From: Dirinaria sp. TL-2023a
Lineage: Eukaryota
DNA: 44,546 nt
Assembly: GCA_051941275.1 (NCBI GenBank)
Contig: JAVEBF010000030.1
Span: 1 to 44,546, forward strand
Direction of reading: 5' to 3'
A model generated the notes under the pieces. The model saw only the letters and a list, made by a program, of their open reading frames with translations, made no database searches and had not been told where the DNA came from. Each line of letters opens with the position of its first letter. Position 1 is the first letter of the stretch. Both the position numbers and the translations under genes were made by a program. Shown here piece after piece: positions 17,458 through 44,546 of the stretch.

Positions 17458-17537
17458 TTCATGGCTGATAACAGCTTGTCAGCCTTCATCTCTGCTGTTC
17501 ATGGCTGATAACAGCTTGCCAGCCTTCATCTTTCTGC
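17458..17537. repeat. 40-bp tandem duplication
   Basis: ttcatggctgataacagcttgtcagccttcatct / ttcatggctgataacagcttgccagccttcatct at a 40-nt period. Confidence 0.9.
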
Positions 17538-20800: not shown

Positions 20801-23800
20801 GAAGCCCGGCAGGAGTTCCGGTTCGCTTATGTTTTGCATAAATTGACCTCGGAGTACAGCATTGAGGACCTTCTTGGTGAAGAGCCGATGCAGAGCTTAT
20901 CGGCGGGTGGCAGATACGTCCAAATTAACCTTTTTATACTATTTATACTATCGAACATCAACCTTCCGATCAATTTTCATACACATCCTACATACTTCTG
21001 TTCTTAAGTCGGGGCCTACCTCACCAAATCAATCACTGTATCAACCGGGCTGCCAAAAGCTTCGGTTTCCTTGTGCATTGCACCAATTGATCCCAGAGCA
21101 CAGCACCGAGAGCCATTGGGAAGAAAAATTCTTAGGCGAACAGCCGATGCAGAGCTTAACGAACTTCCTACAGATACATCAAAATTTATTCTGTCTATAC
21201 TATCTAACATCAATCTTTCGATCATTTTTCGTACTCATTTTAGATGAAGAATTTCATCGATTTTTTCGAGTTCACTGCTGAGCAATTCTGGTGGCCGATA
21301 CGCCAAGCAGGACCTCGTAGCGCAAATCCGGGCAGAATCGAGCAGCTCGTTGGAGAAATAACCATCTGTATGTCGCCGCATGCAGAACGGACGATGTTCC
21401 TGGAAAAATACGTGTTCACCTTATACTCAAAGTTCGTTGAATATACTACATAGCGAAAATGTGAAGCATCACCTTCAAGACCATTCATGATGAATTCTTT
21501 CGATCGACGATTCTCATGGCTTCAATTGGCCGCAGAAGAGCTCTTCATGATATCATGGGAGTGCTGAATATCACGATGCTGGACATACTGGGCTAAAAAG
21601 ACAAGAGACAATGCTAGACAACAAACCTCCTCGATACTCTTCGAGTCATGGGAAAAATGGCGCTGAATGCAAGAGGGATTGCTGGAGGCATTCAGCAGTC
21701 TTACTCAAGTCGTCGTGCCACTATACTAATTAGAAACACACAGCATCACCATCCGCCATTGCCAATTACACACAGCGGATGTATATATCGACAAAAACAC
21801 AGTGGATCCCAAGCGCGATGCACAAGACCGACTCATGTGGGAGCAGTGGCCAAGAGGTCTGAGACCCGGGAAAGAGACAACCTGATCTTGTGATCGGTGC
21901 CTGGCGACAGCCCGATCCAAGGATTACCTGGAACGACCTGGTGCGTCTTTGGCGGAGATGTCAGCTTCGGATCAACACAGACAGAGCTCATCAAAAACGT
22001 GGACCGGAAGGCCACCTCCTGTTCCAACGATGAGCTCATGGTCTGAGATTAGATGAAGAGAGGGCATCATCTTGTGATCGATATCTAACGAAAATTGAAC
22101 CCTCGCATCACGTGGAACGATCTGATTATGAGAATGCAGAGGCATGGTGGCCTTTTCCTAGGATAGTCAAACCTGCACGGCCCTCGTACTAAGAAGCCGC
22201 GAGACACTGGAAAGTCAAGTTCGAAGTCAGCGGATCAATCGTGATCAGACATGGACTTACCCTGGGAGCGAGACCATGTTGTGGAGTTGTCGGACGATCA
22301 CGATATCCAGCGCGAGCTCGATCCAGTCAGACAGCCATGCAGAAACAAGACCAAGAGAACATCTTCAAGCTAATTCTTCACCTCTTTCTTGACACGATGA
22401 GCTTTGCCATCATCCAAACTCACGATCCAAACGGAAGACACAGCTCTCTTAAATCATGAAATCAGCACTCATAGCTGGCTTTTCCAATTTTCACCGAGAT
22501 TGAGACATAGAGTCTCGACACTCACGAGTTCCAAACTGTTTGAAAGCTTCGTTTTGACAACTCGTGTCTCGACTTCTCCCTCAAAGAGACAATCCACTAG
22601 GATCGCTGAAAAGAGAAGATCAAAAGCCAATACTATCGCAATAGCGACCTAAACTCAACACCCGCCGAACCACTCCCTGTCTAAGCCAACAGAACCGGGG
22701 AAAAGAAGTGACGTGAAGACCTGAGACTGTCCAAACGCAATCGTGTCGACTGTTTTACATACGACCGCTGTCGTTTCCATACCCAGATTCTAGGATCACC
22801 GAAGAAGTAAGGACACGATAAAGACTCAGAGCTCGATCCAAGAAGCCAAAGAAATCGAAGAGAGGAAGTTCGGGCAGCGAAGAAATAATCGCTGAAGCCA
22901 GTACACCTACGACCGCCGCCGGTTCCATATCCAGATTCAAGCATCCCCGAAAAAGCAAGGACACGATAAAGACTCAGAGCTCGATCCAAGAAGTCAAAGA
23001 AATCGAAGAAAGGAGGCCCGAGCAGCGAAGACCAGAATCACTCAGGCCAGTGCGCAAGCTACAGCCAAACACTATTTCTGCTCTTTATTCAGCGCAACAG
23101 CAAAACCCAGCGCTTTTCAAAAGAAAGGAGTGACAAATGTTCTCGCGACCGAAGAGGGCTGCCTCTCGAGAATTTTCCAGTGGCGGAACTGTCATGGGCC
23201 ATGGCAATGGGCATGTACACACAACAACTGCTTCACATATACAATCAGTTCTCACTCTACATACACCTGTACTCGTACAACATGCCTGAAAGAACATTCC
23301 TACAGACCAAAGGCTTTACACATCTCCGGTATGAGATTTAGAGTCTCAAAAGTCTCACAAACCGACGAAGAGCGAAATCGGCTCAGATAAAGTACACACG
23401 ACATATCCTCTATCTGGATCATCCTCACGAGAGACATCTTGAAGATCAAGATTTACATATGCTCTCTCAGCATAACTTTCATGCCAAACACGAGAAGAGC
23501 TTTCTGACCCATCAAACAACATCAAACAAAGCACCATACCGAACTTCGATCATGTTGATGATCAATCCTTCATCTCCTGACATCAACCTCATCGCAAATA
23601 TATAATGCATGTCAGGCCAGTTGGTCTCGCGATCTAATTCCGGGATCATCAACGATCTCCGAGATCTTTCATAGAGGAGAGGAACGATATTTCATTGATG
23701 AAGAAATTAAAAATTGGAAAAAAATCATTGCTATTCAGGCGGTCGAAGTAATGACATCCTTCGAGAATAAAAGACGAGCTTCGGGAGCTCTGGTGAAGGA

Positions 23801-24524: not shown

Positions 24525-26070
24525 TCATGAGACCATTTCATCATGTTGCCGGATATCACTCTTCACGTGAATTCTGTCGGGCTCTTGCGGTATTGGCATA
24601 GGTTCGGTGTCATGGGTTACGCTCGTGTCTACCATCCCCGAATCGGGGTGTAATGCTGGCGCTTGAGAGGCCGAAGAGTTGTTTGCTTTCATTTCGTAGT
24701 AGGGTGTTCTGCGACGGCTCTTCGAGCGGCTGGACGCATTAGATCCAAGGGAAAGTTGACTGCGAAGGCTCGCCACAATCGATCGCACTGATTTTTTTGT
24801 AACGAGGAAATGTAGGCTGGGGAGGTTGGTGGCTATGATACTTATTCCAGCCTCGAGCATTCCCCAATATAGTAACGTAGTCAAACCCTCTGCAGTATTG
24901 GTCAGCGAAACCGAACATCTTCTGCCATGCGCAATTGTGGCGTAATGCAAGGAGAGCAAGAGGTCTGATTGCAAAGAAATGATCAACCTGCCGTCAACAT
25001 CAGTCTTGGCAGCTAACCCAGTCGATGCAATTTGAAACCCGTAAACGATACGGACCGCAGATGCGACAATCGATCTGTTCAAAGTCAGAGCAAGGTCTCA
25101 GCATGCCGATCGTTCTTAAAATTCTCACATAACACCTAGAAGGAGAACACCGATGATTCCTAGTTTGCGTGAAGTCGTCATATGGAGTCGCAAAACCTAA
25201 TAGAGGATCAGTGTACATTGATCTCACCATAGGAAAGCTCTGATAGGGCTAAGAAACGTACGATCGGGATCGGTAAGCCCACAACTAGCAGGTCCGTGAT
25301 GAGATCGGTGATAAAGAGGGTGTTTATGAACTTGTACGCCGTTTTGCAGTGCGCAAGCTCTATCAAGGGTCCCCAAAAAGCAGCCACGTGCCCACCACAC
25401 CTCAAAATCTCTGCCAGGCCGTATGCAAGTGTCCAAGCAACAACAATGACTATTGCTACTTTGCTGATGATGTCAAAATGGTTGGAGCTTCTGTCGGCGA
25501 ATAATCGGCGGTAGAAGAAGAGTACACTCAGTTTGATGAATCCATAGGCAAAGATAGAGATGAAGAAGAATATCCATTCGATCTGTGCAAGTGCTGCTTA
25601 GCTGGCAAAGTCTTAGAGAATGAATATTCCACCCTACTTTCTCGACGGCTACCTGAGCGGGGGAGATTTGGTATAATTGAGCTTGAGGATCTTTGTTGGG
25701 ATTCGGGGGTGTCGTGTGGGCGATTACATGTTTTGCAACCCCTTTTGCGCGTAAGTCAATGAACAGTAGGTGCATTTAGAGGTTCTTGGGATAACTTACC
25801 GACGAGCAGAGTTATTCCAAGACCAATGACACAAAGCTGTTGCTCTTAGGTCAAACGGTGATCCCTAGTACGGCTGATGCGTCTAACCAATGCTGGGACA
25901 ATAAAAACGTCGTCCAGCCCAAATGCAATCTGCCTATGATATCTTGTCCAAAAGCGCAATGCGACGGTAATAATGGCAAGTCCTGGTAGCACGGTTGCGG
26001 CTGCGATCGTTTGACCACGAGTATTCCAAGCGAATGATGTTCCCGCCGTATGGCCAACAGGAGCTGCCAT
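24525..26070 (-). CDS. PTH11-like (fungal rhodopsin-domain) integral membrane protein, multi-exon
   Basis: LAIITVALRFWTR...FGLDDVFIVPAL; TDLITDLLVVGLPIP; IVASAVRIV; LYWGMLEAGISIIATNLPSL; Ser-rich C-tail. The exons appear as separate ORF fragments. Confidence 0.85.
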
Positions 26071-27392
26071 AATGAGCCTTGTAATACTTGCACACTCGTT
26101 GAAGCGTTGTACTGTATCTGCCTATCGCAATCCAGGGAACAGACTGGTGGAAAAAATAGAGCACGAACAAAACTTGTACAGGAGCTGTGCAGCGTAGAAA
26201 AGAAAGTAACAGAAAATGCGAGACACTGAGCTAGGCTAGCGAAGAGCCTCTCAAGCGCGGGTCAAAATTATCTGACTTGGGGGTGTTTCAGTGCCTAGGA
26301 GACGCCATGTTCGCTCGCGACGTCCATTTCCGACTTCCAAGCGTAGTTCTCACGCAGCTGTCAATATGGGCATCCCGTGCCTTGTTGGATAATGGCGATG
26401 AGCAACGGAACGGATGTGCTAGCAGAGCGCTTACAATAATGCACATGAGCGTTTTGAGTCGTCTCCGGAACGACTTCCACAGTGCCGTTGCATTAGTGGC
26501 GCTGATCGCGTTAACCAGCGCTCTTGCCGCGCGTGGATAGCTCGGGTAGAATAAGGTAGGAGGGGTAGGTACGAGCATCTTAGTGATCATCATGGTGCAT
26601 GCATCAGGAATGCATGGCATATTTTGCGACCTTGCGTTACTGCAGTAGCCGAGTGGTCTTGACTCACAAACTAGAAGGCGCGCATACTTGAGATGTGGGA
26701 TGCATTCGAAGGAACCGACGTCTTAACACGATCGCCGATCTTGCAATTCAGGCAACCACCCAGGCACCATCGGTTTCAATTTATGATCTCATCGTGCACT
26801 ATTCGTACCATAAACATGCAACGCTACGGTGGAACAAGGCGCAGCTCGATGCCTGGTGATGGATGATAGGAAGCTCATGCGGTATCAACCGACCACTCAT
26901 ACTTTGAAGACTTGCACTTTGTCGTACCACCCTTGCAAAGGGCAGCACTAATGACATCCTTTAGGATCGTACTATCCCGATGTGCGTCAAGTGATTAGCA
27001 CGACACCTGGCCAGGCCGGCAAGCTCAGGAATGCATCTCTGTTAGATGCGAAAAAGTGTATCCTGAAGTCTGATGGTCAGTCTCGGGTTGATTCTTTCCC
27101 TCGCAATGGCAGAGCATACATGCTCACATCCAGGCGATAATAGATCGGCGATTGACCGGGATGAGCTCCCGAAAATGCTCATCACTCAGGAAGCATGGCC
27201 CACACAGCGTGCATATTGGGTGTGAATCCCTGGAGCACACATGGAATCCACACCAGAATGGACTACTCTTGCATAACCCACTGTACCGATTTGCTGAGCA
27301 CAGTATGTGCTGTGAAGCCTCGTTTTCGAACGAAAATTCCTTCTAAGGCTCTACCTTTGTCAAATAAGGACCACAGCAGGATCCTGTGTCCT

Positions 27393-28612
27393 TCACTCCG
27401 CTAATCTTCGTGCTACGATTGTCATCTTTGCGTATCTTACAGCTGCGCCAGCTTCAGACTCCTGGGTTGCTTTGAGCACCATGTCTCTCAACTCTTTCTC
27501 CCTCTCCACATCACGTGCCTTCAACATCACATCTGCAAATTCCTCTGCAGAGAGAGCCCATCTGCCATGGTCAGCCTGGAGTGTCGAGCAGTGAAAAGCA
27601 CTTTGAAAGGTTTGATATGTAACTTACACGTCATTCCAGAAGACAGCCATGTGTGCGCCCTCAAGATATTGAAATTTCTCTGCGTTAACAAATCCGTTCC
27701 TTGTGAGAGTCGCTGGAATCTCTTGAATCCAGTCACGAGGTCCAAGAATGGTCCTATGATTCGCCCAGGTCAGCCAGGGAACCACGGTCCCAGAAGCGTA
27801 AATGAAGAAAAGCCTACTCTCCCTTCTGCCCTTTCAAGGGGGACACTAGTAGATTTCGTAAACTGTTCAGTCCGCTGACTTCCAGGCCCGACTTAGTTGA
27901 AAAGACGTGAGCGGTCGGTGTGTCTAGCTCGTCCCACTGTACATAGCCACCGGGTTCTGGCGCAATCAGTCACAAGAGAGTCTCATCGTCGCCTATTGAA
28001 TCGGAAAAGAGTTGTAGTAGGTGCAGAAATCAAACTTACTTAATAGACGAGCTAGGTCCCTGACAACATTGGTAGAATCATTATTCTTAATAGTAATGGC
28101 AATTACTCGTACATGGACTACGTCGTATTTGGCCACCAGGTCTTGTGGTACCTCTGAAGAGAAATCCCACTTTCGAAATCTGACGTTGGAGGGAAGCCAC
28201 GCTTCTGGCGGACATTGACCCAGATTGATATCCAGACCATCCAGTTGAGTGGTAGCTGGGAGCTTTTCGGCAAGGTCTAATAGCCAAATACTAGTTCGCA
28301 GTCAATCAGCGAACATTCAGATGATGCAAAGAGACGAATTCAAAAGAATAGTCACGGCAAGCCATCTGTCGTACCCAGAACCGGTGGCTAGATCAGCAAT
28401 TCTCGCATCCGCAGGTAAAGCCGGTATATTCGGGTGCAAATGGAAGCCCAGCGAGTGTTGCCATAAATAATACTGGTAGTTAAGACTGCAGCGATAGTGA
28501 GTATCTCGCTTTGAATCACATAGAGAAGAGAATGTTCCTACCGAGAAGTTGCACTATGGCTCCGTCCAAGTACGTATCCGTCCTTAACGGGAGACTCTTC
28601 GGCGTTCATCAT
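27393..28612 (-). CDS. SAM-dependent methyltransferase (fungal secondary-metabolism class, GliN/LaeA-like), 6 exons (28612-28542, 28485-28375, 28290-28040, 27956-27818, 27753-27628, 27561-27393), ~288 aa
   Basis: Manual splicing gives MMNAEESPVKDGYVLGRSHSATSRLNYQYYLWQHSLGFHLHPNIP...RIADLATGSGIWLLDLA...LDGLDI...CPPEAWLPSNV...YDVVHVR...LLKPGGYVQWDE. All five introns are GT-AG and frame-preserving, with no internal stops. Confidence 0.9.
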
Positions 28613-29241
28613 TCTAGTCGAATTTCGAAAGGAAAATCAAGGAGCAGATGGGACTGCGCAAGGAAGGAAACGCATGAATATCTAAATTCCACAACTATTT
28701 TAGCATCTGTACGTCAATAGGAACCTTCTGTGAAAATTGGGTTCCGTGATGTTTATATGCAAAAGGGACTAATAGCGGGCGTTCTTGAAACTACCTAGGT
28801 TAAGACTGACACTCTCCTTGCAGGTCGGGTAACATCGGGCCGGCTGGTTCAGAAAATTAGAGGTCAAAGTGGGGTTATGCAAGCACTAGACCAGCGCAGC
28901 AGTTTTTTTGGTTGATCCTGCAAGCCTGCCCTGCCCTTTATGGCTCGTCAAATATCCAAAAGAAAAGTGTTCGGAGTATCGTCCACTAACTTCTCCCCCA
29001 AGCTGTCAAGCTAGGGAAGCGGTCGCTACCATGCGTCCAATTCAACACCCTCACCATAGGAATTTGCCAAGTCCTGGATGAAAAATCCAAATCCAAATCT
29101 TTTAAGAATTGAAGGGCCAAAGAAGATTCTCATTTGACTTGTCGTGGATTCAGGTTGCCCAGCTTCATCCGAATAAACGCCACTGCTCAGATTGGAAAAC
29201 GACTAGTATAGCACAGCCACAAGATCCGATGACAAGCCATA

Positions 29242-30217
29242 TCAATGGATGCTCTCAAAGCCATCTTCTAAAGTGATATCGTTTCCGCTTTCGGGACTCC
29301 ATTGCGAACTCTTTCCAAAATGCTCACGAACTTTCGGCCAGTAAGGCGAATCCTTGGGACAGAATTTGAAGCGCTCGAACTGATCGATGTAATCGGCTTT
29401 AGGACTGATGTAATTATAACATGAAGTTCGCTTCTTGGCCCAATTCTCTAGTTTCGACCAGTGTCGGCATTGGCGCAGCTGACCAACTGCACTCTCTGGT
29501 GATTTCGTGATGGTCGTATAACGAGGGGTGTCGTCGGCCTGACAGAGTATATCGCTACGTAAAGCGTCCAGGCAGTGAGTAATGTGTAAAAGGGGCAGAG
29601 TCTGCGGGAGACCTAGATGATAATGACGAATTGATTGATGTATGTTTTTCTGCTAATACATGAGACTAGTTAACGCTCGACTCGAGGAATGACATACAAT
29701 GCAATGAAGAGCGTGGTAACCATTGAGTACGTACAATCCCTGAGTTACATCCCAAGGGAAAGACTGTGCCCGCGGCAGCCCCTTGGATCGAGTCCATTCA
29801 TACGGCAGAGCAACGAAGCCTGGGTCGAAGTCGATGGCGTCCCAAAGCTCCGCAGCTAAAGTGAGATTATCTGTAGCGTATTCTGTGGCCCACTCGAAAG
29901 GGACAATATTATCATTCAGCAGATCGGCTAAATCTGTTAGCAGTGCATACCAAATACTGTATAGGGGTGAGAAAACCATAAGCGGAGCGTTGGTGGATCG
30001 TTGGGCCCTTTGTGCGTATAAAATAGACGGTAATCGCGACGTTGATTGCTAAGGAGATACTGAAAAGCAGCAGAAATACATCTCTTCCACTGCAAGACCG
30101 CCAATGCTCAGACTTAAATGTTGATTTCGACACATTGCATTCATGCTCAGTGTCAGTGGATAGAAGTGGCTGTATGTCGGTCTGCATGTTTTGTAAAGGA
30201 GTGCTAGGGCTCGTCAT
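29242..30217 (-). CDS. UstYa/DUF3328-family oxidase #1, 3 exons (30217-29977, 29927-29698, ~29649-29242), ~292 aa
   Basis: Single N-terminal TM (LLLFSISLAINVAITVYFI); twin HxxHC motifs GYHALHC and LHITHCLDALRSDILCQADDTPRY; RQCRHWSKLENWA. Confidence 0.92.
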
Positions 30218-30519
30218 GATTAATGCCCGTCGTAATCTCGAGAAGAGGCAATTGGTACGGCTGCTAGTTTTCTTTGACTTCTAACGTTTCTGTCTTTTCA
30301 AAGCTTTCTTAAGTCAGAAAGTGCGTGCCATTTAGGCCAAGGCGTATTGAGGAAGAGTTCCAACTTGGCTATTTCCTCGTCTCGAGTTGTGAGGAGTAAT
30401 TGTTATCACGAAGACGCCGTTGCAGAGATGAATGCGAACCTGGACCGGAATGTAAGTCATATGTGAAAGAGAAATATCTGTCCGATCCGTTGTATCCAGT
30501 TTGGTATCGGACTTGAGCG

Positions 30520-30543
30520 GCGCCAATAGCTGCGCCAATAGCT
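30520..30543. promoter_or_regulatory. Tandem 12-bp CCAAT-containing repeat upstream of DUF3328 #1
   Basis: GCGCCAATAGCT x2, about 300 bp upstream of the ATG at 30217. The regulatory role is inferred. Confidence 0.35.
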
Positions 30544-31857
30544 AAAGAAGCAAAACCAGGCACGTATTATTGCAGGTGAAAATTTCAAAGAAAGATTCGG
30601 AATGTTCCAAGGCATTCTCATGTAGGGTATTGTGATTTACCCAACCATACCTACTACGCTCGAAGATAAGACGATGTTGACAGGGGGAGGTGATGCGCAC
30701 TTTTCCTCCACCAACCAAATTTTGAAGCAGGGCTTTCGCCCTGCTGCGCGAAACGCAGAGCTAGCAGGCTGTAGCATAGCGTACGTAGAGTTCTCACATG
30801 GATGCAGTGATACATGCACGTCGCGACGTACAGTACTGTAGGATTTGAAGCTGGTTAGTGCCATTCCCTTGAGAGAAAAACTGGTGTCACATGCACATGC
30901 GGTGTTCCAATTGTCATTTCGGCAAAACTTCGGTGACCAGCTTCGTAGGGCTGCTAGCGCGCATCCTTTTTACTTATGCGACACTGCGTCATTCAGATAC
31001 ATTGACAAGAGAAACCCAAGATTGAATGAATGCGTGGTCAAACAAATTCTTTCATTTAGCATTATGAGACTTATCAGCTTCCACAACTCCGTTGGAGTTG
31101 ATCATTCGCAATTGATACGAATCAAGTGAATGTCGAGATCAAATCTTGACGGATGGCCAGTAAGTAGACGTGGTTTGTAAACGTAATCGCTGATACTCTC
31201 ATTGAACGAAACCGAAGGCAGGGTTCAACCGTGCGCTTTAGGCAGTTCTAATAAAGGATTACAGCAAATTTTCGGGAACATCTGTAGCGCAGACACCTTT
31301 GCTACGATGTTACAATAGAAGGTAAGTTACTTGACCTAAAATGCCCTAAACTACTTCTTCGGGCGCGCAACCCGCCCAGGTGAAATTTTTGCGTAATGTC
31401 TTTCAAAGAGCATAGGGAGCAGTCCTCGCAAGCATCTATCCCCGAGATCATTCACCGCGACCCGAACACCTACTCTGCATTGCCTTCCATAAAGGCCGAG
31501 GCCACTGCACAACATCTTGAGACGGGCAGCGATCTTGTCGGATAACGGAGAGATTCTCTTGAGGTCAACCCTCAGTAGCATGTCTATGTTGCATCCCCAA
31601 GCTAACTCCGACTCACTAATTTGCGGTTGCTTGAAGCTTCAAATAATTAAAAAATGGGAGGCATAAAATGTACGACTTTTACCGGGATGCTTTATAGCAA
31701 CAGCAAGAACCCGGCGAAAGATCCACCAAATACCAACATCAACTATTCCCAGCATAATGAAAGCCCGAGCCGATCATAGCGTCCTCCATTTTGCGTTTTA
31801 TGACTGTAATGTTTCGGCCATACCCTGTGCTATCAGTGTTCCTCCAGCACCAATCAG

Positions 31858-32007
31858 TCAGAGCCCGTAACCAGGTCCTGGTTCCGTTTCGGGGACCTCT
31901 AAAATTCCATACTCATGGGAAGTCGGGGGGCAGTAATGGATAGGAACGGCGGTAGTCAGACTCAGCAGCGCAAGAATTGCAGCGCGAATGGCGTTTTCGA
32001 TACGCAT
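31858..32007 (-). CDS. Small secreted peptide, 49 aa (MRIENAIRAAILALLSLTTAVPIHYCPPTSHEYGILEVPETEPGPGYGL); candidate RiPP precursor
   Basis: ATG in CAACAATG context; signal peptide with basic n-region, hydrophobic core AAILALLSL and TTA|VP cleavage; likely 5'-UTR intron; lies between two DUF3328 genes. Too short for the ORF track. Confidence 0.72.
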   Translation of the reverse strand: MRIENAIRAAILALLSLTTAVPIHYCPPTSHEYGILEVPETEPGPGYGL

Positions 32008-33376
32008 TGTTGCCTATGACGGACTGATAGTTGTAAGTATGCACTTGTCCACCACCAAGCAAAAGTACCTACTCTGCTGTTGAAGAAACCGAAGTTCGTG
32101 ACAGAGTTTGGATAACGGATAGGAAACAGAAAGCGATAAATTTCCAACTGGTACTAATTTTCACGCAGGCGAAGGTTCTCACCAGCTAGAGTGTCGATAA
32201 TAGTTCTAAAGCTTAGGCCAAGCGACTTTGAAAAAGATAGACTATGTACGAACATGTTTTGCAAGTTATTATACTATACTCAACCCCCGCCAAGGACGGC
32301 TCTCATGGAATCTGCTACGGTAAGAAGTTTAAACCCGTCATTCACCGTCCAAGCACGCCGGAAAATGAATCGTTGATCATTTGCTGATTGGGATGCTCCT
32401 AAATCCGTCAGTGGAGAAAGCCTTTCTTGAGTTCACTCATACGTGGCGTATGCGTCTCAACTGTGGATCGCGTCATTGTGGCAACCAATAATGAGCTCAG
32501 ATTTTTATGGCAATTCTCAAATCCTAGAAGAAATTTGTCTGACATTGTCGAGGTGCGGGATGAAAATAGGCAGGTATTGGCTATTCGGACCAAGAAGCTC
32601 ACTCCGTTTGGTAGATTGTCGACGGGATCTACCCTATGCACTCTAATCAGGCTATTTGACGGTAGCAGTAGGCAATTGAATCATGCGTCATGCTTAGAGA
32701 TTTGCATGCTACATTTCGAAATGCAGAGTGCAGCAAGGGACCGTGGAATCCTACTGGATCATGCGCCCAAGAGGCACGACTTACTTGCTACCCAGTTATG
32801 CAATGCATGTAACAAGGAAATTTATATCCCGATACTAGTCAGACAACGCGAGAAAGCAATTGTAAGCAAAAGATGCAGCAAGCTATCATGCACTCCACCG
32901 CATGTGCAATACCAACCTATAAACACCTCGGAACTCGATCCAGGATGGCAAGATCAGCGAGCGACCAGAAGATGAAAAGCTAGTTGAGCGGTCAAAGAAG
33001 TACTACGCGTGTAGGCTATAGAGCTGCATTGACACATCACTATGCTTGAACAAAGGATGGAACGCACTAAATATAATCGCAGAGAGTATTCTGACCTGCA
33101 TGAAGGGCACCCATTACTGACCAACGGCAGATTGAGGCGCGCTCGTCGTTCCTTTCAACGTACTTCAAAAAGATTGGCGGTTCATAGGCCAGCCTCTCCA
33201 ACCGACTTCATGCCTCTCGTTACCAAGAAGCTTTAATGAGAATGCTCAGTTCTCGAGACTTTGTCGATTGAACTTAGCTACGAATTCTTGCTAAGAATCT
33301 GTTTGCTCTTCTCTGTCAACCGCGAGACCTGTCATAGATTCATTGGGAACTGGGAAAGAAAGACATACGCTGGACG

Positions 33377-34359
33377 ATGAAGGATTTCTATACTGCCAAT
33401 CGCAAAAATTCAGGCGCGAGCTACCGTCCGATCGACTTTTTTGAAGAGTACGAAAATAAACCTCATTCAAAATCGAAACCCGCAACATTTTATTGCAATT
33501 CCCCACTGAATTGGGCAACAACAATATGCATCGGACTTCTAGCGCTTGTCTTTTGCCAGCAGTATTGGATAATTAGACACCATTTTCGACCTTGTCCAAA
33601 TAGGCTGTTATCGTCTAGTGAGCGTCCCAAAGCTCGTTTCTGTGCGATGGCTTAAGAATATAGAAGTCACTGGTGGATTGAAGGCTGATATGGCAACTCT
33701 TCAGACGGTCTAAGCCTTGCTCTTGACAGAGAATACCTTGCTTCGGTACCAACGAAGTTCACATCACCAAATCTGACCGAAGCCCACGAAGCTTGGGGTG
33801 CTGTCGAAGCTGGTCACGGCGATGTACTGATCGACCCTGAATACGCAGCTGAGCGTGACTTACCACCATCCATACCCCATCCGAGAAATCCAACCAAATT
33901 ACTATACATCATCGAGTCTTATCACGCAATTCACTGCATCGTAAGTAGTATATGCTGAGCCATTTTGGACTCCAGGGATACGTCTCGAAATTGGCTGATG
34001 AGTTTTCGTTCGCCTTGTAGAAAAGACTTCGTACTCATTACTTTTCGCTCATGCATGGCAAGCCTCTAGTCTGGCCTCTAGAGCATGATGAACATTGCTT
34101 CGATACTTTGCGGCAGAATGCTATGTGCTGGGCTTCGGACACGCTTTTGTATACCACGGGAAATTTTGATGCGGGCGTAAATCAAACACGCTTCTGTCGA
34201 GACTGGGGTGCGCTCAGAGATTGGGCAACTGAGAGGTCAGCTTGCTATCACGACTACGAGATAGTTACTGGCGAAGAGCTAGGAGAAGACGGATGGGGAA
34301 AGCACCTAGGAAAATGCGATCGTGGTGATGACGGCTTGCCTTTGGATGGCTTACTATGA
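33377..34359 (+). CDS. UstYa/DUF3328-family oxidase #2, 3 exons (33377-~33617, 33705-33940, 34021-34359), ~271 aa
   Basis: N-terminal TM (TICIGLLALVFCQQYWII); SYHAIHC and EHDEHCFDTLRQNAMCWASDTLLYT; RFCRDWGALRDWA. The first donor is ambiguous among same-phase GTs at 33618, 33636 and 33642. Confidence 0.92.
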
Positions 34360-35728
34360 CAACGTGGCCAGCCAACTCCGACTGACTCTTTTGTCTTCTT
34401 AAGAATCCTGGCAGGCTTTCTACGCGTCGTTGATTATAGATGCGGTTGATTGACCTTTTTGGGATGAGTAAAGACGATTTTAGCTTCTTCTACTCGAAAG
34501 ACACCTTACGATTCTCACAAATCGAGAAGCTTCCTCCAGAGCTTATTCCTTGACTATCAACGTCCATCTTTAACCATGAATCAATATCTTTAATGTTTCA
34601 ATTGGTAATCTGTCCGACCTGTGTACGTAAGATGAAGTCGAAATCAAGTGGAGTTTTCTGTGAACAAATATTGAGTGCAAAATAGCGAGTTTGATACTCA
34701 AGCTAGGTTAAAAGGATTCACATGTAGCGCAAAACTGTGCTGATGCGCCAGCAGAGGAGAGTGAGTGACGGAGAACTCGTATGCTTTTGCCGCACTTTTC
34801 CTCCAGGCTTCGCTTGGGCCCTGACTATCGGTTATCGTTGTAGACAGGATACAGCAGTTTGCGTAGCTACTAGCCTCTTATGAACAGCTTCTCAGTCCCC
34901 TGATGTTTATCCCGTTGATGTGAGCTGCCAGAGTTCAAGGACTGAATAAACATCTTTAACGTCGACGAGACTCAAAACATAGTACAACGACTTATTCAAT
35001 ACGAGCTTATAAAGCATCGAATGCAGTTCCCACGTATGAGACGATATATGTTGCATTGGCAAAAGCGGATGAACAGGAGACAAAAGCTGAGTCAGTCAAA
35101 GTATGGGTTTTTTTTGATCAATGATTTTCGATGAAGATCCGATCCACTGCGTGCATAGATGATATCATAGATTCAAAAAAAAAAAAAAAAAAAGATGTGC
35201 TGCTGAGATACCACTCACTGTGGTCTGCAAGAACTGTTCTCGTGCCAAGACTCAATAACAGCGAGGTGCATCCTACCTGCCTGCATATGGTCCCTCTTTG
35301 TATGCACGTCTGCCTGCTTTCTAAAGTCTCGCCAGCTGTTTTGCTGTAGATCAACGCAGCTATCTCCCACTCGATTGCGTCGTGTAACTGCCCTCGGCAT
35401 CCATCGTATCCGGCTGTCTCTTTGTTCTCGTCATGAGGTCGTATACACTGAGATCTTTCTTAGACGGCAAGGGTTCTCTGAATGTTCTGATAGCTCATGC
35501 ACGTCCTGTCGATAATATCTTGCAGATGTCAATGCACTATGTCTTCATAGAAGCATAGCAGCCGTCAATTGCCAACGGTGTGTTCTGCGCCCATAACACG
35601 CCTACTTGAAAACTTCTCCCTCCAAGTAGGTACTGACGGAGATGTGTCTAATGTAAATGTTCTGATAGCCGGAGAGTATCAGTCGTCAAAGTTCATATAG
35701 CTCATAAAGACCCGAATCCAGTGAGACA

Positions 35729-37096
35729 ATGACTTCTTGGAAGGAGACATCGCCGGGGCGTTTCGAGCGGCCATTTGACTCGATAGAGAGGTTCTTTCTT
35801 GCTCTAGCACGGCAAAGCCTGCCTCTGAACAGAGAGCATTGGGCTCTCAGCTTTTTTGCGCAATTCGATTTGAAAGCATCACAAGCAGACACTGAGTCCG
35901 CACTGAGACATGCCTGGAAGACAATGCGATATGACCATCCTCAAATTGCGTGTATCGCATGCGAAGATACCAAAATATACGAAGTACCAGATCAACTCGC
36001 CTTGGATGCCTGGTTAGACGAGACTTTCATCGTAACCACAGCATTCTCGACCAAGGATGACTTAATGGCGTCATTTCGTCCGTGTAAAAAGGCAACGCTC
36101 TACTATCTTCCGCATACATCGGAAATTTTGATCCATACTTCGCATTGGCGAATCGATCTCATTGGAATGGCTGCCTTTTTGCAGAATCTATTCAAAGCCG
36201 TGGCCGAGCCTCGTCAAATTCATTTTGGTGACGAAGGAGTCAACCTTTCACCAAGCCGAGACCAAGCTGCCGAGTATGGCTCATTAGATTACATCGGCTC
36301 CTCAGTCCAAGCCAAGCAGAGGGAGGAAGCTGCCACAGACCTTTTCATGCAACTGCTCGTTCCGTCAATAGGCCTCCCAGCGCAGAATCTCGACCTAGCG
36401 CCAGGCCTCACTCGACGATTGGAGCTTGTCCTTGACACCAATACAACGTCTGCAATCGTGCTGGCAAGCAAGCAGCGAGGCTTCACCATCGCCACAGCGT
36501 TTCATGCTGCTCTAATTGTTGCACTGCAAGAAGTAGCCCCTCTATCTCCGTCAACGCCGAGTAACTATGTAACCTTCGGGATATTCAGTGTACGCCCACT
36601 GCTTTTACCCACATCTAATGACGCATCCGCCCATCCAGCAGCAGTGTACATTACGGGTCTGCCACTAGTGCTACAGCTTTCTACTTATATCGATCTTGCT
36701 CTTCAACTCAAGCAATATTACAAGCAGCCCCTACCTCCGTCAGCAAACAGCCATGTCAAAAAAGATATCATTGTCCCTTACACATGCAAAACGGTCGACA
36801 TGATCGATCAGGCCCGACCTGGGGAAGTGCTAGCGCTGAGAGAGCCAATCTTGAGTAGCGCAGGAATCTTAGATAAATATCTAAAGCCCATGCATGGCGA
36901 TATAACAGTCAAAACTTTCGGCATGGGATTGCAGATGACGACAGCACAAATAGCATGTCACCTATGGACTTGGCAGGGCAAGATGACATTGAATGCCTCC
37001 TACAACGAAACCTTTTATGACCAAGGCTTCGTCCAGAGATATTTGGAGCGGGTAATAGAGATAGTCAAAACGGAGCTGGCCGTTCGGATAGTCTGA
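35729..37096 (+). CDS. Tri3-like (trichothecene 15-O-acetyltransferase family) CoA-dependent acyltransferase, intronless, 455 aa
   Basis: WKETSPGRFERPFDSIE, AWKTMRYDHPQIA, catalytic HxxxD in SHWRID, FGDEGVNLSPS, C-terminal WTWQGKMTLNASYNETFYD. Confidence 0.85.
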   Translation: MTSWKETSPGRFERPFDSIERFFLALARQSLPLNREHWALSFFAQFDLKASQADTESALRHAWKTMRYDHPQIACIACEDTKIYEVPDQLALDAWLDETFIVTTAFSTKDDLMASFRPCKKATLYYLPHTSEILIHTSHWRIDLIGMAAFLQNLFKAVAEPRQIHFGDEGVNLSPSRDQAAEYGSLDYIGSSVQAKQREEAATDLFMQLLVPSIGLPAQNLDLAPGLTRRLELVLDTNTTSAIVLASKQRGFTIATAFHAALIVALQEVAPLSPSTPSNYVTFGIFSVRPLLLPTSNDASAHPAAVYITGLPLVLQLSTYIDLALQLKQYYKQPLPPSANSHVKKDIIVPYTCKTVDMIDQARPGEVLALREPILSSAGILDKYLKPMHGDITVKTFGMGLQMTTAQIACHLWTWQGKMTLNASYNETFYDQGFVQRYLERVIEIVKTELAVRIV

Positions 37097-39006
37097 TTGG
37101 TTTTGAGACTACTATATCGAATATTCGTCCCACGGGTTTCCGTTTGTCTGAAAGCGCTGAGAACATTTCGTTAGGCTTAGTCTGCACTCGAGTGCCATTC
37201 TTTCTGAGTATGTCGAAAGTTTTCCAATGTGCCAGTTTCCCATTTTCAAGACGATGGTCTTCTGAAGTTTTCAGCCTCGCAGTTTAACAGAATCTTGGTC
37301 CATCAATTACTTTTTCCTACAGAGCTGCCCTTTGGCCTCTGACACTATAAGGCGGGGTCAAAAGCCTCATGACCCGAAAGTCAGAATGTCAGCGATCTTC
37401 TCGGCTATTGAAATGCCCTGTCTACCGAGCTGAACGATAGAATCTAACCCAGGAGAAATTGGTTTTACGAACCACTCACAGCTCTCTCGAGATGTTGGAA
37501 CTCCGTGTAACTTTAGCTGCCATGATACACGTTAACCTTCTAAGAACGGCAAAGTGCACAATTAGTGATACATACCCATTACGAACTAAAATGTACGCTT
37601 TGATGAAGACCTAAGGTCGGAATTTGCTGTCAATACCCTGTCCTTGTTGGCTACTCCCTCGGCTAGGTGCTGTGCACTCAAATCTGCAGAGTGCAATATA
37701 AGCCTCGGAATCCCGTTCCCCTCGCGATCATTCTTGTACGTCTTGTTTCGAGCCCATCTATAAAACTGCCTCAACACCTCCAACAACATTTCTTAGATAC
37801 GTTGACCAAAACGGTCTAGCTTCTAGACTAGGCAACCTTACCTTAACACCTCTAAGGGTAAATAGTGCCCACAAATGCTTTTTCATAGACTTTAGACAAT
37901 ACATGCTACATACACATACCAATTAGGTGCAATTGACTTGTTGGCGTATAAATCTGACACCATCATCATTGCTTGTGACGCCGGACCCTATATTTTAGTC
38001 TTCATACGCTGGAAATTTTGTTCTGCTTCGTATTGTCCGCTTCGTCTTGACAAAGAAATCCAGCGATGAGATGCATTGTAGAGTCTCAATGCCAGAAATG
38101 TTTTGGCTATGTCGAATAGGGTGACTCAGAAGATAATGTCTCTCGACAGCACTTCTTGGACTCGACCGACGGGCACAACTTCGCATTTCGCGACACACTT
38201 TGAATCTCAAAATATCGTGTATTGCGCTGAGAGGAGCATCGCATGTGAGGAAAAAGGCACGTGAACGATAGATTGTACATAAATGGATATGGCTGGTCAT
38301 CGGAAACCCAGGATCGGACACATTCACGAGAGCTTGGAACAAGATATCAAAGAACCCATGAACCACGTAACTTGTCGTCTGCTTCATCGACAGATCGAGT
38401 CACTCGCAAATCTTTTACAGAATCGATCCGCTTACGCGATGAAGTTCTCAAAAGGCTTGTAGCACGCAACAACCACCTTAAGGTACTTTCGTTTTTGGTG
38501 AGTCTTTGCCAAGTTCGAAAAAGTCGAGTAAATAAAGTCTTACGTAAGTCAGTATGCCAAGCTTTCACTCGATAATGTGATGATGTAATTCAATTTCCCC
38601 TTAACAGTCCACGCCAAGCTTTGTAGACAAACTTAGGTTTACTCAGGGCTGACTCAGGTCTAGTAGAAGAAACAAGCGCTGCTGTATCAACTTTTCTTCA
38701 ATACGATTCTGCCTGCCAGACATCACGAAAATTTGGTTGCTCACTCGTCTAGCGATTATTTTTGGGTTAGTCATAGAGGATGTTGTGTAGACTGGAAGTG
38801 GTTACTTTGTTTATGTGAATTCAACGAGCGTAACCACGGCAGGAGAGTCAAGGTATAATATCTCTTGACTTTCTGGAAAGCGGGAACGGCTTTTTGGACC
38901 TCTGGTCGCCTTTTATTACTCGTAGTCAGGTCGTGATGTGATTTTGAGTCATTTTATTGAGCAAAATGACTTGTGTACTAGTGTTGCAAACACTACATGG
39001 TTCTAC

Positions 39007-40641
39007 TTACTCGACATCTGCAGAAATCAAGGCTCTTAACCCTTTTGACTTTCGACTTGGCAAGGCATTGAAACCGTCGACAGTAATCTTCAAGTCCCGG
39101 TCATAGTTAACTTCGTGCAGACTCAATCGACCTCCAAACCTTCTTACCACGGCAGCAATCGTCAAATATAGTTCAGCCCAAGCGAGGTTGAGTCCGAGAC
39201 ACATACGGGTGCCACCACCAAACACAACCAAGTGCTTGCAACGTTGGCGAACCTCAGGTGAATCGAGTGGCAGCCAGCGTTCAGGCAGAAAATTGTGCGG
39301 CTCCGGGAAGATGTCCGGATTCTCAAGTGTGTCCATCATAGTCATGCCAACGGGGACATTCTTTGGAATAATGACATCGCCGTAGTGGTATGATACGTCT
39401 GGTGAGATCCGCGCTAGGCGATGTGGTACGCTCTTGCTTAGCCGGAGAGCTTCGTGCAGTACAGCGGTCAGGTAAGGGAGCTTTTCAAGCTCTGCGAAGG
39501 TGGGCATAGCTGCAGGGTTAGGAATTGCAGCATTGAGCTCTTGACGAAGTTTTGTTAGACACGTTGGGGAAGTCAGAAGGTAGAAGATGGTAGCATCCAG
39601 GGCAGTTCCAGTTGTCATAGTTCCCGCTCCGGTCAATGCTTGCGCCTCTTCAGTCAAACGAGCCACAGACTTCTCGTGAGGAGGCACATCGGCTTCAAGT
39701 ATAGCGTCGAATATGGTGAACGCGTCTGTAGGTTTCTTGGAACCTGTTGCGTAGCGCTCTACGACCCCTGAAACCCCTCTTGCAAGATCCGCCTTGCGTC
39801 TATTCGCTGCCTGTAGGCCATTTGCTGTGGCTCGCGACGTTATTTGTGGGAAAAGTGCCGTGACTTGGAAAATCCAAGGGAAATGCCGGACGAGGTTGCC
39901 GGTGCGACTTTCAGAGACCATCTGTCTGTACCAGTCTTGAGCAAAGTCTTCCAGCTCCAAACACCCATACGAGTAGCCGAAACAAACTCGAGAGATGATG
40001 TCCAGAGTAAGTGCCACAAAAGCGTGAGTTAGCGATATTACTTTCTTGGTTCCGCTCGCTTCTTCCAACCGAGAGCAAAGCTTGTCAATCTTGCTGGTGA
40101 TGAGAGGTTCGAGGGTTCGTATCGAAGCTTTGGAGAAGAACGAGCTTAGTTGATTGCGTCGCAGCTTATGTAAGTCGTGTCCGATGGTTTTGAATGTAGA
40201 ATTTCGTGTCCACCTAAGGGGCAGCTGTTATCTCGAGACTGGCTGGGGATTTTCTTGACGTGGGCAGGGGCATACGATTGTCTTGCGAGCCACATTGGTT
40301 TGTCAGTCCTCCTCTTCGCTGAGCCAACGTAGAGCACGTCGAAAAAAGCTGGATCGTTGCAATGCACTTCATGAGGATTGATGCGAACGAAAGGTCCTGC
40401 GTCATCAAGATCAGAAACATTCAAATAGGGCTCTAAGACAATACATACCATACTTTTCGTGCAAGTCCCGCAGCTTCCAAGTATATTGCCCTTCGTGCCA
40501 GACATCGTAGAAGAATTCATAGAAGTATGTAAGTGCTGCGAGCTTGGGCCCGGGAAACCTGGCTGCCGGCGCGAAGCAGAGACGGTAGATAATGAGGAGC
40601 GCAAGATAGAGAGCAGCTAGGATGCTCAACAGAGCAAGCAT
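39007..40641 (-). CDS. Cytochrome P450 (CYP58/Tri4-like clan), 3 exons (40641-40449, 40396-40276, 40213-39007), ~506 aa
   Basis: TM anchor then FPGPKLAALTYFYEFFYDV; GPFVRINPHEVH; I-helix AGTMTT; ExxR (EALR); PERW; heme motif FGGGTRMCLG. Confidence 0.93.
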
Positions 40642-41280
40642 GCTTTGAAAATTTAGGCTTAAATCTGAGAGGTCCTGAGAATGATGATCACATTCTTCGT
40701 GACTCGACAATATTAAATCCAACAGGCCATGGGTGCCCGGCATGGAAGTATTTCGGCGAGAAGTTTGCGTGTTTTCTAGTCTGCAATACAGGATTTCTTT
40801 CGATCCATGATCGCCACTCCCCAACCTTTCTCGAGTATTGCAAGATTGTCTTGTCGAATCAAAGCTCTGGCCAGTCATGCAGTCGTCTGACTAAGCCATC
40901 TTTCCATGCGGGAGGATGCAGGATCCCAGCAAAGCGAACTAAGGCGCCGTGAGCTGCCTACAACAGTCCATCCCCAGCATTTGATACTTAAGCATGAAGA
41001 GTTCCAAGTCTCGGTTGACACACCTCGTTCTTGAAATGCTAGAGCGGGCATAGATTGGCGAAATATGCGAGACACTCGAAGCAAGCCAACGACTAATCTA
41101 CCGCGAGATCCTCTTTTGCCTCCTCGCAATACCTTCTATTTAGTGCAGCAGGATGGTCTGTGGAATGGTCTATTACAGCTCTATGATCCCTATAGGGTTT
41201 TCACAGAGTTTTTGAATTGCTAGTAATCTATTATAAGCTCGCAAAAACCTATAAGAGTCATCCGTGCCGGACCTTTGGTT

Positions 41281-42552
41281 TCAAGGTACCTTTTTCATCT
41301 GCAAATCGAAAGCCGGATGGGCAAAGTTCTCCCGCTCTGGAAACATCTTTGTTACCTTCGTCCATGCGACAAAATTGACCAGTCCTACAGCGATACTGTA
41401 GATCGTTCGAAGAATCCAAATGCCCAGACTCGTCTGAGGGTTGAGAAGGTACGGTGCATAGCCGCGTAGTGGTATAACCTGACATTCCTCCACATACGAT
41501 CGAAATCTCTTCTCGTACATCTCAAACGCCGTCACATTCCGATTTCTCGATAGTTCTTGGGCTAGGACCCAAGCACCTATAATTGCCAATTGATTTCCTT
41601 CGCCAGTAAAAGGACTTGGAGCCCAAGCTGCATCACCAACGAGAGCTACCCGGTTCTCGGACCATTTCGGGAGCTTCACCTGCACGAGCTCATCGGAATA
41701 AAAATTGTCGGTCTCCATCATCCCCTCCAGGATCCGAGGAGTTTCCCAGCCTAGGCCACTGTATATATCAGCAAAGGCTTCCTTTTGCTTTCGTCTTTCC
41801 CCAGCAGCATTCGCTCGACGCAAGCTAGGGATATCGTCCGAGAGCTTGATGAATGCTACTGATGTGACCTTGGACGAGCCGTATTCCTTGCCTGTTGGCC
41901 GCGTCCACACAATTCGCCGGCCTGGGAAGTGGCATACACGGGAGTAGGGCCAATCTCGGTCTTGTTTCGGGATGGAGAAGTAAGCAACGAAGGCACCGAC
42001 ACGCTTGAAACAGCCGAGCTTCTCGGGTGAACCCATGACGAGCTGCCTCGTGCGAGACCCTACTCCGTCCGCACCTACAACTAGGTCAAACTCTTCGCTG
42101 GTAATGGCCTTGGTGTTTCTGTTCTCCAGGTCGACGATGGCTTTTTCTGGTGTCTGTCTGATGCTATGGAGTGTTGTCTCGAATCGGTAGGCGACATTGG
42201 CAAGTTCGTTGGCGGCATGATAGAGAACTTCAGTCAGGTCACCGCGCATGAGCTCAAGAGCACCTGTGGGACTGATGCCGTCGCCGGCATCTAGGACGCC
42301 GTAGGAGCGAGCTTGCGCGTCTTCAAGCTTGAAGCCTTTCTCGCCTGTCTTCTTCTCTTGGAGCTTGTCCAGGACGCCCATCGCCTTCACGACTGTCAAT
42401 GCCGGTTCCTCGATCTCAATACCTTGTCCCGCTTTTTGCTCAGATCTTGACCGCTCAATGACGACGACTTGAAAGTCGTTTCTTGCGAGCCAGTAGGCTA
42501 AGATTGAACCTGCTGGACCTGCGCCACAGACGAGAACCCTTTCCGACGGCAT
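41281..42552 (-). CDS. FAD-dependent monooxygenase (FAD_binding_3 / group A type), intronless, 423 aa
   Basis: GAGPAG Rossmann motif, DLVVGADGVGS (DG motif), RVALVGDAA...GEG (GD motif). Confidence 0.92.
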   Translation of the reverse strand: MPSERVLVCGAGPAGSILAYWLARNDFQVVVIERSRSEQKAGQGIEIEEPALTVVKAMGVLDKLQEKKTGEKGFKLEDAQARSYGVLDAGDGISPTGALELMRGDLTEVLYHAANELANVAYRFETTLHSIRQTPEKAIVDLENRNTKAITSEEFDLVVGADGVGSRTRQLVMGSPEKLGCFKRVGAFVAYFSIPKQDRDWPYSRVCHFPGRRIVWTRPTGKEYGSSKVTSVAFIKLSDDIPSLRRANAAGERRKQKEAFADIYSGLGWETPRILEGMMETDNFYSDELVQVKLPKWSENRVALVGDAAWAPSPFTGEGNQLAIIGAWVLAQELSRNRNVTAFEMYEKRFRSYVEECQVIPLRGYAPYLLNPQTSLGIWILRTIYSIAVGLVNFVAWTKVTKMFPERENFAHPAFDLQMKKVP

Positions 42553-44546
42553 TGTACGTGGTAATCCTTGATATAAGTGATTGAGATATCGAATATAGTT
42601 TGAAAATATCTACAGCAGCAGACGATATGTACAATAAATTATGTGCAATAACGATGTACCAGCCTGCGAAGGGATGTTTAAGGTACTTGTGTTTCGAACT
42701 TTTTAGGCTTCAGGAATTTAGCAGGATGTGATTGGCCACAGAAAACTCCGGGAGTACCATTACACCGCAGAGACAGTGTCGTCGGAACAATGTATTTCCG
42801 AGGCCGAGGCAGCAGGATCTTCAAAACCTTGAGTAAGTGTGCAACCGCTACTTAAAGTCTTCGAACCGTGTGCGGTGCATTGATTGACTCAATATACAAT
42901 ATGGGATGCTAATTTTCAAAGCACAGGTTCAATGTATACAGAGACCAATATATGAACCGCAGTAGATCTAGTCGCCTCCCACACGATGGAGGCTGGCATC
43001 TCTATTCTCGACAATCACTGTCGGAGAAGAAATCAACCTCCGATATTTGTTAGATCTTGCAGCGTTGAAGTTCGGAATTTGGTCTTGATACTCGTGACCT
43101 TTTTGTTCTCGCGATCTTCATGCTCTCTCTTCCATCTGCTATGCGGCGGGCACTTCTGGCCCGTACGCGGGGAAGTAGACAGTTCCAATGAGGACAGGAA
43201 CAGAGGAACACCAAGCCGATATTTCGAGCAGAGTCTGCTGCTCCGGGCTTCGTACCTGACCAAGAGCTTCTGTAGCTTTCACAAAATTCTTTATGATGTT
43301 TGGAGAATTGAATAAAGATTTTCATTTAGCATACAGCTAGCAGGAACAACTATCTTAGCGGAGACGTGCGAAACCAGGAGGCCGAGAAGACGCGGACGCT
43401 CTGGAATAGCAGTATCTCTGCGTTGATAAGGCATCGATACAGTATCTCCACGGAACCCATACGACTGATAAGGTGTCTATACTATTCTTCCAGAGCTACC
43501 GCGCCTTCTCAGCCCCATGGGTTTGCATATCCCCGCTCATATATGGAGAAAAGTGGATATTACAGAGCCATAAGACTTCAGAAAAATGTCTTTGTGGCTA
43601 TCGAGATCATTGCTTAGAGCACCGTTCTAATTACGAGGCGGAACTACTCGCACCGACAATGGTCAAGCAACGTTGAGAACGTCAGTGTGAGGAAATGCAT
43701 GAGCGAAGAAAGCGAAATAAGGGAGAAGACCACTTGCCAGTGATAGATATTGATGACGGATCGTGGTTGAGTATAGCAGGGAAAGCGCATAGCAGACGCG
43801 GCCACTTCGTGCCTTCCCTTTTGGTTCGATTCACCAAAACACACCTCAAGTCTCTGTCTCTCTGGTGTTTTCTTTTGGCAAACAAATCTTCAAAGACTGA
43901 AAAGGTTTGGGATTAAACTTCAAAAACTCGATTATGGCGTCTCATACAATCGCTTTCTCCACGACGGCTTTCCCCTCCCCAGTTTCTTCCTCCCCCTCTC
44001 CATCCGTGTCCCTGACCTTGAAGCCTTGGGGCTTAGACCCCAATCATTGGGGCTTTTTATCTGGCTTCGGCGCCATGTAGGCTGCGGGTAATGCTTTTCC
44101 ATCTCCTTCGTTCGAGGGGCAGTTAGGGTTGCCGTGAGCGTCAATCTATATATCTTTTAATGCATGGCTAGTCGTGCTTGGGTTAAGGGATTTTTAATCC
44201 TGCTTAATTCTGTTCCACTAATTGACTTATGACACCAGTTGAAATCAAACTTGAACCTAATCTTTGTTGAATTGTGACGAGAACTCGCGTTGACATGTAC
44301 TCATAGCCCTTATGACTATTTTGGCCTTCCCGACCCTCGTGCAATGGTTGAGGTGTTGGGGACTCGTTCGCCTGTCTCAGGACGACCTCCTCGACCGGGG
44401 GGCAAAGCTGGCTGCTCTTGCAGCAGCAGCCAGGGCCTCAACTAGTCCTCTGGTCGAGGAGGGTCTGGCGGATAGGCTGACTGATGAGGCAGCGGCGGTG
44501 GGGACGGAGTGGGTGAGACGGGAGACTGGGGGTTGGAGTGAATGGT

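Follow-up and report, generated by a model that had tools for sequence, protein, structure and literature searches.

The locus analysed here raises the question of what its two UstYa/DUF3328 enzymes act on. Dikaritin precursors are secreted, multicore repeat proteins that are processed by Kex2 (PMC9233826), and clusters with UstYa/DUF3328 genes are common in fungi. In a survey of 111 genomes of lichen fungi, DUF3328 clusters were reported to be widespread while no repeat precursor accompanied them; according to the available text of that survey, the missing precursor may be encoded elsewhere or is "possibly a single core peptide" (PMC12048977, Pasinato & Singh 2025). Genome-mining rules look for a signal peptide plus Kex2 repeats, and therefore a 49-codon precursor with neither repeats nor Kex2 sites would escape them and stay unannotated. 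A small frame of this kind had been pointed out in a first-pass annotation of the DNA studied here, a stretch of 44,546 nt from Dirinaria sp. TL-2023a (hereafter the window), where it lies between two DUF3328 genes. The features of the locus are collected in Table 1.

Table 1. Features of the UstYa locus in the window, in order of position.
Feature	Position	Strand	Description	Evidence
Six-exon gene, 288-aa protein	27393-28612	minus	DLATGSG motif	RNA-guided model
UstYa/DUF3328 gene 1 (UstYa-1)	29242-30217	minus	motifs HALHC and HITHC	Pfam, RNA
3′ untranslated part	31454-31857	minus	collinear, unspliced	RNA, same contig as the ORF
Candidate small ORF	31858-32007	minus	49 aa, coordinates including stop	translation
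Intron	32024-32072	minus	49 nt, GTAGGT...CTTAC...CAG (CT..AC on the plus strand)	RNA joint 32023->32073 in X1 and X3
First exon and 5′ leader	32073-32414	minus	end at about 32414-32420, estimated from bin depth	RNA to at least 32327
Probable second intron	32399-32442	minus	44 nt, GTATGAGT...CTGAC...TTTAG	X2 joint 32398->32444, one letter between
UstYa/DUF3328 gene 2 (UstYa-2)	33377-34359	plus	exons 33377-33617, 33705-33940, 34021-34359	Pfam, RNA
Tri3-like/condensation-superfamily acyltransferase, 455 aa	35729-37096	plus	HWRID (HxxxD)	PDB 3fot 15-O-acetyltransferase, E 6.3e-6
Cytochrome P450	38923-40890	minus	two RNA-supported introns	Pfam
FAD-dependent monooxygenase (FAD_binding_3)	41281-42609	minus		Pfam, RNA

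The two genes that flank the frame were characterised by domain and motif searches. Pfam matches to UstYa (PF11807) were obtained at 29242-29652 on the minus strand (E 7e-12) and at 34021-34359 on the plus strand (E 1.5e-11), and both products keep the HxxHC(x)nHxxHC motif, so that family match and motif together identify them as UstYa/DUF3328 copper oxidases. UstYa-2 has an N-terminal membrane helix and the motifs HAIHC and HDEHC, and its exon junctions are confirmed by P0003, a protein of a relative that was called on an RNA contig and aligns to the three exons with 76/80, 74/78 and 55/61 identities (205 of the 219 aligned residues are identical). P0003 stops after FCRN, 51 residues early, and carries HDEHY in place of HDEHC; because of this truncation and replacement, the UstYa-2 gene, or the pathway, may be decaying in the relative even though it is transcribed. 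In UstYa-1, an intron of 48 nt at 29650-29697 is supported by RNA. At 29928-29976 (minus strand), the frame that holds its start codon (ATG at 30217) and membrane helix is offset from the frame of the UstYa domain; the two can be joined by a GT..AG intron of 49 nt (GTTTTC...CTAAC...TTTAG), which is not removed in the relative's RNA contig, collinear with the genome across 29698-30345. The offset reflects either a retained intron or another start.

What is known of this enzyme family sets a requirement on any substrate that is made by ribosomes. In CctR, the HxxHC(x)nHxxHC motif binds two coppers, and activity is lost when the motif's His or Cys residues are mutated; the catalytic domain is turned towards the lumen in Golgi, endosomes and vacuoles (PMC12435403). 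A ribosomal substrate would therefore have to carry a signal peptide. No frame in the window encodes a classical precursor with a signal peptide and repeated cores flanked by dibasic sites. Two tandem repeats, at 22760-23031 and 17451-17531, were considered as repeat precursors and rejected, as they encode nothing of that kind; the former (148 nt, 1.8 copies, 87% matches) is AT-rich, and its frames are basic, of low complexity and free of Pfam matches.

Re-translation returned the candidate ORF with the same coordinates, strand, length and setting between the two UstYa/DUF3328 genes as in the first-pass annotation, and its product reads MRIENAIRAAILALLSLTTAVPIHYCPPTSHEYGILEVPETEPGPGYGL, followed by the stop. 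The ORF cannot start further upstream, because a TAG in the same frame (32016-32014) precedes the ATG by 9 nt; a search for a longer spliced ORF across both introns found none, the frame being closed by this TAG. The ATG stands in a good context (GCAACAATGC, A at position -3). The first 20 residues look like a signal peptide: R2 and R8 lie in the n-region, the h-region is AAILALLSLTTA, and positions -3 and -1 are occupied by Thr and Ala. These 20 residues pass a heuristic rule of our own, which combines a basic n-region, an uncharged hydrophobic window of 10 residues and small residues at -3/-1, with a mean Kyte-Doolittle value of 2.36 for the hydrophobic window and a predicted cut after residue 20; the signal peptide proposed earlier is thus borne out at the level of this simple rule. 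The remaining 29 residues (VPIHYCPPTSHEYGILEVPETEPGPGYGL) comprise 3 Tyr, 1 Cys, 2 His, 6 Pro and 4 Glu. Lys and Arg are absent from them, and indeed from everything after residue 8, which agrees with the earlier remark that the mature part has no KR/RR site. Accordingly, no Kex2 sites flank cores in the ORF. Several repeated cores are likewise absent: there is one YGIL, at residues 33-36, and one YGL, at the C-terminus. Neither an internal repeat nor a paralogue elsewhere in the 44.5-kb window was found, and Pfam gave 0 matches to the ORF.

We then asked how readily such a frame arises by chance. The UstYa start codons at 30217 and 33377 leave a gap of about 3.1 kb, and the ORF lies in it, directly between the two genes. 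Its length is unremarkable, because the gap holds 18 ATG-initiated ORFs of at least 40 aa; mononucleotide-shuffled gaps average 8.8. The signal-peptide rule is passed by 4 of the 207 ORFs of at least 40 aa in the window, namely the N-termini of a SnoaL_4 protein and of an MFS transporter, the candidate ORF and a 56-aa ORF. Within the gap, the candidate is the only one of the 18 to pass (at least one pass occurs in 6% of 300 shuffled gaps), and it is also the only one among the 123 ORFs of at least 25 aa between 27 and 43 kb. The 56-aa frame (14821-14991, minus strand; MRFLGKVLAISALVLIASTDYG...) is a second small ORF with a signal-peptide-like start, far from the cluster. The codon-usage log-odds of the candidate, from a score trained on seven real coding stretches of the window against intergenic background, is 0.189 bits per codon, compared with 0.190 +/- 0.124 for real 49-codon windows and -0.02 +/- 0.09 for 155 small ORFs; the candidate's score is reached by 4 of these 155, and it ranks first of 17 within the gap.

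Transcription of the ORF was assessed in three runs (X1, X2 and X3) from one lichen-metatranscriptome sample of one study (6-7% of sampled words each). The RNA contigs are 90-95% alike to the window, as compared over 24547-44546, and therefore come from a relative and not from the Dirinaria strain of the window. In X1 (depth 21.9) and X3 (depth 28), contigs span 31454-32023 and continue from 32073 to at least 32327, having lost an intron whose end lies 16 nt upstream of the ATG. Its sequence is that of a canonical short fungal intron, and the GT..AG joint fixes the minus strand and identifies the molecule as RNA rather than DNA carry-over. Transcription of the ORF, which the first-pass annotation had named as a check of its proposal, is thus seen in this relative, spliced and on the minus strand, and the candidate is the longest ORF on the RNA-covered stretch. 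The upstream end is less sharply defined, as cover is thinner further up and contig depth cannot place the transcript start; given the probable second intron, some transcripts would begin upstream of 32444. In the window genome, leader ATGs lie at 32380, 32341, 32306 and 32255, the last of which opens an ORF of 33 codons, and the 198 spliced nt directly before the ATG of the candidate are free of ATGs (none from 32254 down). There are at least four upstream ATGs if the transcript starts at about 32420 and eight if it starts at about 32700, the latter including a 73-codon ORF across the upstream intron.

Differences between the relative and the window were compared along this transcript. Among the differences listed, which run up to 31881, 35 fall in the 3′ untranslated part and one falls inside the ORF, a non-synonymous change (31881 G>A, Pro43 to Ser). 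Among the indels listed, none lies inside the ORF and two lie just 3′ of the stop, where 1 nt is deleted (31836) and 19 nt are inserted behind 31846, both at most 22 nt after it; this placement is a weak hint that the frame is kept in the relative. The insertion adds a copy similar to a 13-mer, CACTTTTCCTCCA, which occurs on the plus strand of the window at 30698-30710, 31834-31846, 32042-32054 and 34793-34805 (two exact, two with 2 mismatches). Across the whole window there are 6 matches to it with at most 2 mismatches, where 1.39 are expected and none of 100 shuffles gives as many; the 13-mer could be either a regulatory site that is shared or the remnant of a short repeat.

The signal-like start, the codon usage and the spliced transcript are the three things that lift the ORF above chance, and we judge it reasonably probable that the ORF is a real small gene. 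The main rival, which we regard as unlikely, is that the transcript is a non-coding spliced RNA (long non-coding, or promoter-associated in a region shared with UstYa-2), that the ORF is a chance frame within it, and that the UstYa substrate is made elsewhere. A leader that is not depleted of ATGs (4-8 upstream, including those of 33-, 45- and 73-codon ORFs) and that perhaps contains two introns would suit such an RNA, as would the abundance of ORFs of this length in the gap; against this, the longest ORF of the transcript is the very one in which a signal-like start, gene-like codons, a favourable ATG context and an ATG-free stretch of 198 nt come together. That the one difference listed inside the ORF is non-synonymous also fits a non-coding RNA, but an Rfam scan of 30300-33400 gave 0 matches at E up to 1, and introns of 44 and 49 nt are too short for a snoRNA host.

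The search for relatives of the peptide bears on the same choice, since the lack of a homologue among 1.84 billion representatives, apart from one non-significant match, favours a non-coding RNA. Word-based protein searches returned no candidates for the ORF (26-86 aa) or for one unit of P0002 (30-98 aa). HMMER with the ORF against these representatives gave a single match, P0002, with an E of 3.2e-6 that is the sum over two tandem units, each of which has an E of 4-13; P0002 was accordingly kept as a lead and not accepted as a homologue. It is an orphan ORF of 119 aa on a 120-kb metagenome contig and consists of two tandem units of 62 residues, each with a basic start containing KR, a hydrophobic stretch and ISYCPPKPHEY (compare IHYCPPTSHEY of the candidate ORF). 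What P0002 and the ORF share is thus I-x-YCPPxxHEY after a hydrophobic stretch, and not YGIL; Pfam on P0002 gave sub-threshold noise only. In JGI metagenomes, one locus (L001) was confirmed out of 601 pattern matches and was rejected as chance, because it lies on a densely packed bacterial contig with YGILEVPE out of frame inside a 416-aa ORF. The ESM Atlas held no usable match to the candidate.

The remaining genes of the block were examined for another source of the cluster's product. Spliced contigs from the same runs cover all six neighbours of the ORF: the methyltransferase-like gene, UstYa-1, UstYa-2, the acyltransferase, the P450 and the FAD monooxygenase. The six-exon gene is called methyltransferase-like on the strength of its DLATGSG motif, which we take to be of the SAM-methyltransferase type; Pfam on its largest exon gave no match. 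In all three runs, the acyltransferase contigs are by far the deepest of the locus (about 70-75, compared with 5-28 for the others), depth being a poor measure of expression. Every other covered unit of the block has an enzyme gene, which leaves the transcript over the ORF as the one unit to which no protein had been assigned. The X1-X3 contigs give no cover at 30550-31216, 37887-38553 and 43223-44546; these stretches likely mark intergenic DNA and are not proof of silence. Among 108 stop-to-stop frames of at least 90 aa, Pfam found 0 matches to PKS, NRPS, tyrosinase or peptidase families in the 44.5-kb window. Upstream of the cluster, isolated matches to a PD-(D/E)XK nuclease and to RNase H, at 4914-5321 and 13063-13755 (both plus strand), may be relics of mobile elements.

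This inventory also bears on the possibility, which we consider quite improbable, that the cluster tailors a non-ribosomal peptide or another metabolite whose synthase lies outside the 44.5 kb, as in the cases of cyclochlorotine and the astins, the ORF being irrelevant. DUF3328 enzymes are reported to hydroxylate and chlorinate NRPS products (PMC12435403, PMC12048977). The Tri3-like acyltransferase, the P450 and the FAD monooxygenase are generic tailoring enzymes, and the window ends 1.9 kb past the last cluster gene, so that a backbone synthase could lie beyond 44546; the final 1.3 kb, however, has neither RNA cover nor a Pfam match, and the stand-alone 455-aa acyltransferase is the only match to a condensation, adenylation or ketosynthase domain in the 44.5 kb. 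It is very unlikely that the ORF encodes a real secreted peptide, symbiosis- or defence-related, that merely lies between the UstYa genes without being their substrate: the evidence for a real gene applies equally to such a peptide and nothing chemical ties the peptide to the enzymes, but its mature part contains a single Cys and nothing that would form a fold, the Y-x-I-x motif is present, and the co-transcribed tailoring block has no other backbone gene.

We thus return to the ORF as the source of the cluster's peptide. That it is a real, unannotated small gene for a ribosomal precursor, which would serve as a single-core, Kex2-independent UstYa substrate, is a tentative reading to which we give close to even weight; it is favoured because of the position between the UstYa genes, the topology and the lack of another backbone gene. 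The first-pass annotation had proposed that the ORF is a single-core or C-terminal-core precursor released without Kex2. The small-gene part of that proposal is upheld by the transcript and the signal-like start, and the further step, to a UstYa substrate freed without Kex2, is an inference from position. A complex prediction that combined UstYa-2 exons 2 and 3 with peptide residues 20-49 (score 0.01, mark 0.34) counts neither way.

Under this substrate reading, the pathway would begin with the minus-strand mRNA between the UstYa genes, which, as seen in the relative, loses its 49-nt intron 16 nt before the ATG. Translation from the ATG at 32007 would yield a 49-aa prepeptide, whose N-terminal 20 residues would direct it into the ER and be cut off after T-T-A. 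As judged from what is known of the family, the 29-residue peptide would then reach UstYa-1 and UstYa-2, which are anchored in the membrane with their binuclear-copper domains in the lumen. With the help of O2, these enzymes would link the side chain of a Tyr to an aliphatic residue two positions further along. In YGIL, Y33-G-I35 would be the ustiloxin/phomopsin-type Y-x-I, and Y47-G-L49 a possible second site. Tailoring would fall to the methyltransferase, P450, FAD monooxygenase and Tri3-like acyltransferase, and trimming to peptidases whose genes lie outside the cluster; Kex2 cannot be the releasing protease, because no Lys or Arg follows the signal.

A broader proposal, for which our confidence is lower still, extends this scheme to lichen-type fungi in general. 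They may derive a dikaritin-like peptide from a precursor of 49 residues that is single-copy and has no Kex2 sites, from which signal peptidase alone would free a 29-residue substrate and the two UstYa enzymes would cross-link YGIL, perhaps also YGL-COOH or YCPPTSHEY; such tiny genes might be the "missing" precursors of many lichen DUF3328 clusters. If the ORF is the substrate, it would be a dikaritin-type variant that is single-core, Kex2-independent and very small, and the question of the missing precursors of lichen UstYa clusters would have an answer open to testing. There would also be a defined peptide for synthesis and for assays with the copper-dependent UstYa enzymes, and small genes of this sort could be sought in other "orphan" UstYa clusters. 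If the ORF is not the substrate, the locus is still a co-transcribed UstYa cluster that is active in a natural lichen thallus.

Comparison with known systems places the ORF near the dikaritins and outside their precursor family. Its likeness to UstA, PhomA and AprA (the precursors that give rise to ustiloxin, phomopsin and asperipin-2a) consists of the signal, the adjacency to UstYa/DUF3328 genes and a candidate Tyr-x-Ile-x core. A methyltransferase, a P450 and a flavin monooxygenase belong to the ustiloxin cluster as well, and all three have counterparts in the cluster of the window. In contrast to these precursors, the ORF is present in one copy, has 49 aa in all and contains no KR/RR site, and the window has no tyrosinase or peptidase; word, HMMER and Pfam searches detected no sequence similarity of the ORF to UstA, PhomA or AprA. 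Because repeats and Kex2 sites, the two defining features, are absent, the ORF does not belong to the dikaritin precursor family, although it could work like a dikaritin precursor. Dikaritin cores follow Y-X-I-X, as in YAIG, YVIG and YVIP (PMC7329392, Umemura 2020), and YGIL fits this pattern, a single occurrence in a short peptide being weak evidence. The weight that had been placed on YG[IL] as the feature to look for is reasonable in this light, although P0002 has YCPPxxHEY in common with the ORF instead.

Other fungal systems share part of this arrangement. The flanking enzymes resemble CctR, the DUF3328 hydroxylase of cyclochlorotine, in HxxHC(x)nHxxHC and the N-terminal membrane helix; unlike them, CctR acts on an NRPS product, and the window has no NRPS. 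The GigA/epichloecyclin precursor is likewise small, secreted, expressed in symbiosis and clustered with a DUF3328 gene, with a Tyr-Ile cross-link in its product (PMC9233826, PMC10540207), but it is a multicore repeat protein processed by Kex2. AcaA, the 81-aa precursor of acalitide in Acremonium, is a fungal RiPP with a single core and no repeat array; it differs in that the available text of its description includes no DUF3328 enzyme, in that a dedicated peptidase, AcaB, releases and cyclises the core, and in that disulfides stabilise the product (PMC10840396). In the open-access text available to us, no UstYa-linked precursor with a single core or without repeats is named beyond the suggestion in PMC12048977. 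The Parmeliaceae Clans R1 and R2 of that survey have other accessory genes, to be set against the Tri3-like acyltransferase, P450, FAD monooxygenase and LaeA-like methyltransferase of the window, and the available text names no precursor for them (PMC12048977). They are nonetheless alike in the features from which the present question arose: a lichen-type fungus, UstYa proteins that carry the HXXHC motif twice, and the lack of any repeat precursor that could be recognised (PMC12048977).
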